DNA of 64,000 nucleotides, taken from positions 128,001 through 192,000 of the forward strand of contig CAWETW010000004.1 of NCBI GenBank assembly GCA_963812155.1, in the 5' to 3' direction. Both the position numbers and the translations under genes were made by a program. How positions within the stretch are numbered: position 1 is the stretch's first letter; each line of letters opens with the position of its first letter. The notes under the pieces are model-generated. The model was not told the DNA's origin, did not search any database, and saw only the letters and a list, made by a program, of their open reading frames with translations. Shown here piece after piece: positions 24,037-36,619 of the stretch. The stretch comes from Vulcanimicrobiota bacterium. GTDB lineage: Bacteria > Vulcanimicrobiota > Vulcanimicrobiia > Vulcanimicrobiales > Vulcanimicrobiaceae.

Positions 24037-24447
24037 TTAGCAAGCGAGGCAACGGATGTGCCGGGTGGCGCGGGCGTATTCGTGCAGTTGCCGGTCGCGC
24101 GTCATCAGCTTGGCCCCAAGAGACGCTGCCGTCGAGACCAGGATTCGATCTGCCGGATCGGCGTGCAGACGCCCGGGAAGGGTCGTCGCGCCGGCGGCAG
24201 TTGCGGGCGTGAGGGTGGCCGTCACGACGCCCCGGCGGCCGAAAAGTGCGCGCACGTAATCCGCGACGGGCATAGCCAGCGCGAGCCTGCCCGTTTTGAC
24301 GAGCACTCCAATCTCCCACGCACTAATAGGCGAGAGCAACAACTCATTTCGCGAAGCGGCATCGTCGATAGCCGCGGTCACGGACTTCGAGAGCCGGCCT
24401 TCAACGGCCCAGACCGCAGCGTGGGTATCAAGCAAAATTGGGTTCAT
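24037..24447 (-). CDS. vapC: VapC-family PIN toxin
   Basis: ILLDTHAAVW, SPISAWEI, HADPADRILV, LMTRD. Confidence 0.9.
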   Translation of the reverse strand: MNPILLDTHAAVWAVEGRLSKSVTAAIDDAASRNELLLSPISAWEIGVLVKTGRLALAMPVADYVRALFGRRGVVTATLTPATAAGATTLPGRLHADPADRILVSTAASLGAKLMTRDRQLHEYARATRHIRCLAC

Positions 24448-24727
24448 CTGCCTCCCACTCGACACCGGTCGGCGAGATCAGGTCACCGGCTTTAACGATG
24501 ACCCCGCTCAACGAACCACAGAACGCTTCGGCATCCGAAATGGGCAGGAGCCGCGCTACCGGCCGTCTGTGTTTTGTAATAACGATTTCGGCGCCCAATC
24601 GCTCGACCTCGTCCATGATTTCGAGACAGCGCGCCTTGAATTCGGCGGCCCCGACTTCGCGAGACCGCAGCATCAGCAACGATACCGGGTTTTCCGATTT
24701 TTTCGACCCTTTTTTATTTGTGGTCAT
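24428..24727 (-). CDS. Phd/YefM-family antitoxin
   Basis: VGAAEFKARCLEIMDEV....EIVITKHRRPVARLLP; overlaps vapC. Confidence 0.9.
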   Translation of the reverse strand: MTTNKKGSKKSENPVSLLMLRSREVGAAEFKARCLEIMDEVERLGAEIVITKHRRPVARLLPISDAEAFCGSLSGVIVKAGDLISPTGVEWEADEPNFA

Positions 24728-24796: not shown

Positions 24797-24825
24797 TTGC
24801 ATCGCCGCTGGCCGTATGCTATAGT
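24797..24825 (+). promoter_or_regulatory. Sigma70-type promoter
   Basis: TTGCAT-17 bp-TATAGT with extended -10 TG. Confidence 0.8.
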
Positions 24826-24837
24826 GGCGCTCACATT

Positions 24838-24912
24838 ATGTTGAACCTGGTGTCCGCGCAATCGTATTATTATCCGACCGGCTTCCATCGGCTCGGCGTG
24901 CTATTGCGTTAA
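24838..24912 (+). CDS. Attenuator leader peptide MLNLVSAQSYYYPTGFHRLGVLLR
   Basis: 24 codons with TAT-TAT-TAT at 24865-24873; starts just after the promoter and precedes a terminator. Confidence 0.8.
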   Translation: MLNLVSAQSYYYPTGFHRLGVLLR

Positions 24913-24934
24913 CGAAAGACTAAGAGGAACCAGC

Positions 24935-24973
24935 AAAGCCGTCTCGCCGATGCGAGGCGGTTTTTTTGTTTTT
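24935..24973 (+). terminator. Attenuator terminator
   Basis: AAAGCCGTCTCGC-CGAT-GCGAGGCGGTTT followed by TTTTGTTTTT, upstream of the HDO gene RBS (AAGGAG). Confidence 0.9.
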
Positions 24974-24986
24974 GTAAGGAGATTGC

Positions 24987-25760
24987 ATGTCCGCCACAAT
25001 CGATTCCGTTCCGAGCCTCGCCGCCTTCAGGCGATCCGTCGCCGGCTGCATCGAAGGCCATCCGATCGTGCGCGCTAACCGCTACGCGGCGTGGTTCTCG
25101 CGCGGGGACGCGACGCTCGACGAACTGCGGGCCTTCACGGTGCAGTTTTCGGTTTTTAGCCATCTCTTCATTGAGGCACAGCTGCGCAAGTGCATCAACG
25201 CGCCCGACATGCAGAGTTACCGGGCCGGCAAGGAGATTCTCCTCAACGAGTTGGGGGTAGTCTTTGCGCCTTCGGGCAGCATCGAAGGCGGAACGTTTCG
25301 CTTCTCGGCGGGCCACTTCGAATGGCTCGCCCGATTCGCCGAAGCATTGGGCCTCGAGTGGAACGACATCGGAAAGCGTTCGCTCGGAACGCCGGCGACG
25401 CTGGCCTTTTGCGACGCGCTCATGGACTGGTATGGGTCGAGCGATCCGTCGACGGCGGCGGGAGCATCGCACGCGATCGAACACTGGGCTGCCGCAGGAT
25501 TTTGGAAGGAGTTGATCGCCGGTTTACGGCTCGTCAAAGCCCGCTCGTTACCGGACCTTCCGCTCGGCTTTTGGACGTGGCACGATGCGCTGGAAGATCA
25601 ACATGCCGCCCACACCGACGAGGAGCTTTGCGAAGCGTTCAAGAGCCCGGGTTTTTCGCCGGACCGATTCATCGCCTCGGGACGTGCGATGCTCGATGCC
25701 GTAGCGGAGTTCTGGAATGGTCTGGACGAGTCTCGTCTGATGCGATCGACGGCAGCGTAA
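24987..25760 (+). CDS. Heme-oxygenase-like diiron oxidase (PqqC/CADD/TenA superfamily)
   Basis: HP...N.Y..WF..G..T.DELR.F..QF; candidate metal ligands in NELG, GHFEW, AIEHW and WHDALEDQH; FWNGL end. Confidence 0.85.
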   Translation: MSATIDSVPSLAAFRRSVAGCIEGHPIVRANRYAAWFSRGDATLDELRAFTVQFSVFSHLFIEAQLRKCINAPDMQSYRAGKEILLNELGVVFAPSGSIEGGTFRFSAGHFEWLARFAEALGLEWNDIGKRSLGTPATLAFCDALMDWYGSSDPSTAAGASHAIEHWAAAGFWKELIAGLRLVKARSLPDLPLGFWTWHDALEDQHAAHTDEELCEAFKSPGFSPDRFIASGRAMLDAVAEFWNGLDESRLMRSTAA

Positions 25761-36244: not shown

Positions 36245-36619
36245 GTGAACGATCTGGCCGAACGAGAGTGCGTACCGTGCCGCGGCGGCGTGCCGCCGCT
36301 GACGCGCGAAGCGATCGCGCCGCTGCTGGAACTGCTCGAACCGGGCTGGCGCGTGCGCGACCGGCCGCACGGCGAGGGCGTCGTGCTCTCGCTCGAGCGA
36401 ACGTACCGCTACGCGAATTTCGCCGAGGCGATGACCGCCGCCGTCGCGATCGGCGAGATGGCCGAGCGCCAGCGCCACCATCCCGATTTGCACGTGGCCT
36501 GGGGTCGCCTCGGCGTCGAAGTGTGGACCCACAAAATCGGCGGCCTCACCGAAAGCGACTTTATCTTCGCGGCCAAATGCGACGCGATCGCCGCAACGCT
36601 CGCAACGCCGCCCACGTAA
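36245..36619 (+). CDS. phhB: Pterin-4a-carbinolamine dehydratase
   Basis: CVPC, AERQRHHPDL, WTHKIGGLTESDFIFAAK. Confidence 0.9.
   Translation: MNDLAERECVPCRGGVPPLTREAIAPLLELLEPGWRVRDRPHGEGVVLSLERTYRYANFAEAMTAAVAIGEMAERQRHHPDLHVAWGRLGVEVWTHKIGGLTESDFIFAAKCDAIAATLATPPT

Follow-up and report, generated by a model that had tools for sequence, protein, structure and literature searches.

The window, by which we mean the whole 64,000-nucleotide stretch analysed here from a Vulcanimicrobiota genome (source genome G000), contains a single gene for a heme-oxygenase-like diiron (HDO) protein preceded by a compact leader, the parts of which are collected in Table 1. The initial annotation had listed a promoter, a 24-residue leader ORF with three TAT codons, a protector hairpin, a terminator, a ribosome-binding site and the gene, and all of these are present in the sequence or in the folds computed from it. 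A generic consensus promoter scan of the window did not return the promoter-like site; hexamers resembling its TTGCAT and TATAGT occupy the equivalent position in most homolog leaders, as judged by eye and uncounted. Divergent from the leader, at 24037-24727 on the reverse strand, lies a Phd/YefM antitoxin and PIN toxin pair that recurs, among the loci inspected, only in the closest relative (G143). This pair and a glyoxalase gene, both flanking the HDO gene, were considered as parts of the system and set aside because they are not conserved beside the homologs of the family.

Table 1. Parts of the leader and the HDO gene, in window coordinates
Feature	Position	Strand	Details	Basis
Promoter-like site, sigma-70 type	24797-24825	+	-35 TTGCAT at 24797-24802, 17-nt spacer, -10 TATAGT at 24820-24825	sequence
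Leader peptide ORF, 24 aa	24838-24912	+	three tandem Tyr codons (TAT) at 24865-24873	
Protector (anti-antiterminator) hairpin	24855-24910, ends approximate	+	lies over the Tyr codons	minimum-energy fold of the full leader, ribosome-free
Antiterminator 5' arm	24886-24897	+	pairs with the terminator 5' arm and loop	constrained folding; homolog alignment
Intrinsic terminator with U-tail	24935-24973	+	hairpin at 24935-24964 in the scan	terminator scan; near-invariant in homolog alignment
RBS of the HDO gene	24976-24982	+		sequence
HDO gene, 257 aa	24987-25760	+	3His/3Glu set; proposed pterin-independent phenylalanine 4-hydroxylase	predicted fold, ligand columns, distribution, synteny

The tyrosine leader and its predicted switch

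TAC is the favoured tyrosine codon of the source genome, as had been surmised from the region: TAT accounts for only 29% of Tyr codons across 1202 long ORFs, none of which (0/1202) contains three consecutive in-frame TAT codons. When the genome was scanned for ORFs with a codon run followed by a terminator, two sites were returned, one of them the HDO leader. The other, at C1:~494780 on the forward strand, is a candidate Thr-type attenuator, in which a strong terminator follows a short ORF containing a run of Thr codons. A second TAT-type run (C3:286813), considered as an ilv leader, was rejected because it falls within a membrane-protein ORF. No Rfam family matched the HDO leader significantly (best E 0.051), and the unconstrained fold of 24828-24990 is of unexceptional stability (z -0.98), so that the case for an attenuator is built on conservation and geometry and not on folding energy.

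Conservation was assessed across 301 sampled genomes of the phylum, 56 of which encode the HDO protein, every one in the host family; G024 was dropped as a weak match, leaving 55 carriers. Thirty loci were returned initially, and all 29 with upstream DNA carry a leader with three to seven Tyr codons and the same terminator. A further 20 family loci include 18 with at least three Tyr codons, one with two (G296) and one in which the run is lost and the terminator kept (G111). The Tyr-rich upstream ORF and terminator that the initial annotation expected of homologs are thus found, with at least three Tyr codons, at 47 of 49 host-family loci, a count that covers 49 of the 55 carriers. Metagenome loci, excluding one human-derived locus of 80, also have Tyr leaders, of diverged sequence and including some on low-GC contigs. 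The source names attached to close homologs indicate Eremiobacterota. Genus g16 (L264-L268, L184) has a variant leader with three scattered Tyr codons in place of a run, and a different terminator loop.

Ribosome-mediated attenuators such as trpL, pheL and hisL combine a short leader, a run of cognate codons, a protector, an antiterminator and a terminator. The HDO leader has the same layout, with the difference that it would sense Tyr and that its target would be one oxygenase gene, not an operon for de novo biosynthesis. Left free of ribosomes, the full leader reaches its minimum energy as protector hairpin plus terminator (-46.2 kcal/mol). The footprint of a ribosome was simulated as a mask during folding, placed one base late in the window; with the Tyr codons of the window leader masked, the antiterminator arm pairs with the terminator 5' arm at -21 to -24 kcal/mol. 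Across homologs, the nascent RNA masked on the Tyr run folds into an antiterminator (-18 to -31 kcal/mol) occupying 9-13 bases of the terminator arm, and a mask at the leader stop codon reduces the antiterminator to 0 to -6 kcal/mol and allows the terminator to form. This behaviour, an antiterminator on Tyr stalling and its collapse at the stop, was obtained by constrained folding for 28 of 28 folded homologs and for the window, and in 24 of the 28 the leader stop codon lies 21-26 nt upstream of the terminator. In the finished transcript the terminator usually remains the most stable form, which means that the switch must operate co-transcriptionally, as classical attenuators do.

The 13 pairs of the antiterminator are intact in 90.5% of alignment cells, compared with 23-54% in slid controls. 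Covariation in the antiterminator is weak because its core is nearly invariant: it is seen at 1 of 13 pairs, with 6 compensatory cells against 2.6 in shuffled alignments (3/500) and an overall score matched by 188 of 500 shuffles. From these alignments and constrained folds, the leader appears to be a real and conserved Tyr-sensing, ribosome-mediated attenuator, as initially read, and we infer that it attenuates transcription in vivo. Its predicted induction by Tyr starvation implies that the HDO gene should supply Tyr.

The HDO protein and the functions it may replace in its host family

The AlphaFold model of the protein is of high confidence (pLDDT 95), and its top Foldseek and VIA matches all belong to the HDO/PqqC/TenA group, with CADD first in the Foldseek list. 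Comparison of the model with CADD, HrmI, FlcD, PqqC, BesC and UndA gives Z-scores of 20-22 at 12-16% identity. The fold is thus shared with the characterised set CtCADD/NePabS, HrmI, FlcD, BesC, UndA and PolF (top entries Z 20-22, rmsd 2.3-3.2 Å over 211-230 residues), from whose solved members the window protein differs in having only 12-17% identity and 21 inserted residues between its first and second ligands. The model therefore predicts a heme-oxygenase-like helical bundle of the HDO/PqqC-CADD type. The six predicted ligands, E88, H110, E165, H199, E203 and H206, are retained by 88-89 of the 92 homologs in the alignment, and H110 and the last four ligand positions align with those of BesC and pABA synthase. 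The initial reading of a PqqC/CADD-fold gene with an E/H/E/HxxxExxH ligand series agrees with both the model matches and this conservation. A 3His/3carboxylate pattern is the HDO pattern (available portion of PMC13108848) and is common to the characterised set and the window protein, for which we predict a dimetal 3His/3Glu site.

Searches by sequence place the protein outside named families. Pfam gave only sub-threshold PF14518 and PF03070; no NCBIfam model matched, a single-sequence search of the PDB and a search of the GenBank phage collection each returned no match, and the ESM Atlas returned only hypothetical, TenA-like and PqqC-like clusters. The pterin-dependent hydroxylase domain PF00351 (Biopterin_H) has no match in the HDO protein or in the source genome. 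One homolog, P0124, is fused to cytochrome b5 and sits on long branches with the copy on a giant-virus MAG contig (L168).

HMM searches of the source genome, which is 83.85% complete, detected none of TyrA, PhhA, prephenate dehydratase and chorismate mutase; tblastn with relatives' TyrA, prephenate dehydratase and chorismate mutase likewise found none of these three. The genome does encode DAHP synthase and chorismate synthase, the latter split (C1:208671-209727). An hppD-fahA-hmgA cluster lies at C1:112318-118081, unlinked to the HDO gene and with hppD split over two frames; the two split genes suggest assembly indels. In the window itself a pterin-4a-carbinolamine dehydratase gene (36245-36616, forward strand) lies 10.5 kb from the HDO gene in this genome without phhA, and we count its presence against a pterin-independent Phe hydroxylase.

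The anti-correlation with tyrA that had been offered as a check is borne out in the host family. Among 207 genomes, which are incomplete and, as kin, not independent, 9 carry both HDO and tyrA, 46 HDO alone, 108 tyrA alone and 44 neither; within one genus (n=59) the corresponding numbers are 7, 21, 23 and 8. Seven tyrA matches weaker than E 1e-10 were scored as absent, which with the kinship of the genomes means that Fisher values exaggerate the exclusion; the family tallies take in genomes flagged as unpublished (G248; G178, G231, G233, G264, G275). Among the nine double carriers the HDO is broken in two (G124, G214), and the genome that has lost its Tyr run (G111) is another. phhA was found in none of 206 family genomes. 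The 44 genomes with neither HDO nor tyrA count against the Phe-hydroxylase reading. In genus g2 (n=19), HDO, TyrA and PhhA were not found, although chorismate mutase and prephenate dehydratase were present in 3 of 3 genomes tested; a third Tyr route or auxotrophy is possible there.

Searches of 54 carriers for chorismate mutase gave a match in 11, nine of these being the tyrA-positive carriers, and none in 43; all 18 tyrA-positive control genomes have it, and the second chorismate mutase Pfam family was found in 0 of 80 genomes. Prephenate dehydratase was present in 5 of 54 carriers. The 43 carriers with no chorismate mutase found are apparently unable to make prephenate. Two genomes (G118, G229) encode chorismate mutase and prephenate dehydratase in the absence of TyrA; they could make Phe and would therefore need a step from Phe to Tyr. 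Elsewhere in the host family, prephenate dehydratase was found in no genome of genus g4 (n=45), even where chorismate mutase adjoins tyrA; either the members of this genus are apparently auxotrophic for Phe and synthesise Tyr alone, or they use a different dehydratase.

Homologs beside genes of the homogentisate pathway

A GTDB scan recovered at least 480 relatives among 600 candidates, of which the best 80 were kept, mostly from Gamma- and Betaproteobacteria with some Myxococcota, Binatota and others. Among these best 80 of at least 480, at least one of hppD, hmgA, fahA and maiA lies within the fetched flank at 69 loci and at least two at 64 (hppD at 60, hmgA at 62, fahA at 60, maiA at 56). 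Metagenome homologs that share 52-65% identity with the window protein are in many cases found immediately 5' of hppD, and P0279 is a clean in-frame HDO-HPPD fusion; other long matches are apparent frameshift read-throughs into hppD or hmgA. No Tyr leader was found at any of the 79 proteobacterial-type loci with upstream DNA, from the same best 80. Neither a conserved aminotransferase nor a conserved reductase was seen among HDO neighbours, and the latter is counted against a Phe hydroxylase.

Fifty genomes drawn from the best 80 of at least 480 relatives (G304 and G313 are unpublished) were tested for the two established routes to Tyr: TyrA exceeded the cut-off in 47 and PhhA in none. The absence of phhA from HDO genomes is only weakly informative. 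Across Methylococcales phhA was found in 0 of 201 genomes and HDO in 28 of 201, which makes the phhA control uninformative there, and in the family of G329 (n=166) phhA occurs in 14 genomes and HDO in 3, never together, although an overlap would rarely be expected by chance anyway. In the same family, phhA-phhB abuts maiA-fahA at 9 of 14 phhA loci, convergent to maiA, and HDO directly follows maiA, co-directionally, at 3 of 3 HDO loci; the two share the slot by maiA but differ in orientation. PhhB is linked to phhA, a pterin-recycling dehydratase flanking 14 of 14 phhA loci, in contrast to 1 of 196 HDO loci.

A quick, midpoint-rooted maximum-likelihood tree of 68 rows, in which clades were judged without a formal test, groups the Tyr-leader sequences together (SH-aLRT 98) within a clade that includes hppD-linked homologs (91), a placement consistent with recruitment from catabolism. 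Homologs also occur in other settings. On several phage-like contigs (L162-L164, L169, L247; L242-L244, L248), HDO is accompanied by a glyoxalase-type gene, a dehydrogenase and an FAH-family gene near glutamine synthetase, possibly as an auxiliary metabolic cassette. A homolog on a Gloeothece verrucosa plasmid (L128, 11893-14788) neighbours genes for a 2OG-Fe dioxygenase and a cysteine-desulfurase-like protein, and another cyanobacterial homolog (P0277) is fused to a UbiA prenyltransferase; cyanobacterial homologs possibly have a biosynthetic use.

Candidate reactions and their consequences

Substrate, product and electron donor of the HDO are proposals here, the first two drawn from distribution and synteny. 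The product must feed HPPD in tyrA-positive operons and must also relieve Tyr starvation without prephenate, and this dual demand leads us to para-hydroxylation of the Phe skeleton. In our judgement the HDO is probably a pterin-independent phenylalanine 4-hydroxylase, converting L-Phe to L-Tyr, that was recruited from catabolism to supply Tyr. The substrate could instead be phenylpyruvate, hydroxylated to 4-hydroxyphenylpyruvate and then either passed to HPPD in catabolism or transaminated to Tyr for supply. This is the main rival, and it loses nothing on distribution, the whole of which it fits equally; the HDO-HPPD fusion and the operons without a conserved aminotransferase fit it at least as well, and the frequent position of HDO directly 5' of hppD in metagenome loci is also in its favour. 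We nevertheless think it rather unlikely, because characterised HDOs mainly use fatty or amino acids (available portion of PMC13108848), because the known peripheral route runs from Phe to Tyr and then to 4-hydroxyphenylpyruvate with general aminotransferases (available portion of PMC1173090), and because HDO takes the place of phhA-phhB beside maiA. The tight link to hppD would also suit salvage of Tyr or 4-hydroxyphenylpyruvate from some other aromatic (such as 4-hydroxyphenyllactate, or tyrosine bearing a halogen or other modification) or an accessory role in the homogentisate pathway, as would those viral and marine loci in which the partners of HDO are the glyoxalase-type, dehydrogenase and FAH-family genes instead. 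However, a rare substrate would not allow the loss of chorismate mutase and TyrA in 43 genomes, Tyr starvation should not switch on a helper of Tyr breakdown, and the hppD-fahA-hmgA cluster of the source genome is not linked to HDO; we regard salvage or an accessory role as improbable.

The initial annotation had held that the enzyme supplies Tyr, naming as its first route an O2-dependent oxidative decarboxylation of prephenate or arogenate in place of TyrA. The general claim is supported by the conserved leader and by the tyrA anti-correlation; the named route has the same anti-correlation on its side, together with the UndA-type oxidative decarboxylation known in the superfamily (available portion of PMC13108848), but it is contradicted by what the carriers appear to lack. 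Neither chorismate mutase Pfam family was found in 43 of 54 carriers, the source genome has no chorismate mutase by either search, and homologs coexist with tyrA inside operons for Tyr catabolism, so that we consider it very improbable. Least credible of all is a self-sacrificing enzyme of the CADD kind, with its own Tyr as the source of pABA, even with CADD at the top of the Foldseek list and with Tyr33, kept in 84 of 92 homologs, aligned to the sacrificial Tyr of the pABA synthase chain. The column of the amino-donor Lys (Lys152/Lys159, available portion of PMC11965152) is Leu176 here, with Leu also in the profile and 82 of 92 homologs, for which reason we do not class the protein among pABA synthases; sequence identity is 15-16%, folate genes were not seen in its context, and the consumption of Tyr during Tyr starvation would be the wrong logic. 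The second option of the initial annotation, a pterin-independent Phe hydroxylase, is the one that distribution and synteny favour.

As a Phe hydroxylase, the HDO would be a non-homologous, O2-dependent substitute for PhhA that hydroxylates L-Phe at C4 and takes the electrons for its re-reduction from a general cellular donor, not from a pterin; the fusion of P0124 to cytochrome b5 is a hint that such a donor is needed. By extension from HDO chemistry, substrate would meet a diferrous site, O2 would yield a peroxo species, the ring would be attacked and the site would be re-reduced. The available portion of the 2026 HDO review (PMC13108848) lists no aromatic C-H hydroxylase among HDO reactions and gives no ring hydroxylation, which leaves the proposed chemistry without precedent in the superfamily. 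In many bacteria the enzyme would open Phe catabolism, from Phe to Tyr to 4-hydroxyphenylpyruvate and on through HppD, HmgA, MaiA and FahA. In the host lineage its gene would have left a catabolic operon and gained a ribosome-mediated attenuator. With Tyr-tRNA scarce, a ribosome stalled on the Tyr run would let the antiterminator form and HDO be transcribed; with Tyr plentiful, a ribosome at the leader stop codon would cover the antiterminator arm and the terminator would form. Cells without chorismate mutase or TyrA may in this way make Tyr from imported Phe.

The conversion of Phe to Tyr is attributed to the pterin-dependent PhhA/PAH family. PhhA/PAH (PF00351), with PhhB, resembles the HDO in its proposed reaction, pathway position and maiA-fahA neighbourhood, and differs in its fold and in using mononuclear iron with a pterin co-substrate (available portion of PMC3458870) where the HDO has a predicted dimetal 3His/3Glu site. 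Phh, an aminotransferase and Hpd constitute the peripheral route from Phe to homogentisate (available portion of PMC1173090), and Table 7 of the same source, as far as available, predicts attenuators ahead of tyrA operons, so that attenuation of Tyr supply itself has been predicted before. What sets the window HDO apart from known HDOs is its context in primary metabolism and its apparent control by amino-acid attenuation; we found no description of the HDO family or of the Tyr leader in open-access papers. To the earlier reading the present analysis adds the chorismate mutase test, the tyrA profile and the comparison of the phhAB slot.

We think it probable, then, that these proteins constitute a second, unrelated class of Phe hydroxylase: a pterin-free diiron HDO, spread over several phyla and some viral contigs, that carries out aromatic C-H hydroxylation, opens the homogentisate pathway to Phe in genomes that lack phhA, and serves as the sole Tyr route under a Tyr attenuator in one soil lineage. 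The leader would be a Tyr biosensor without an Rfam match, and the amino acid that it appears to sense may indicate the product of an orphan enzyme family. If the assignment is true, aromatic hydroxylation joins the HDO repertoire, and a cofactor-simple Phe hydroxylase would be useful in metabolic engineering. A pathway hole would be filled in hundreds of genomes, given the size of the GTDB set, and predictions of auxotrophy would change, because Tyr synthesis would be possible even where tyrA and phhA are both missing.
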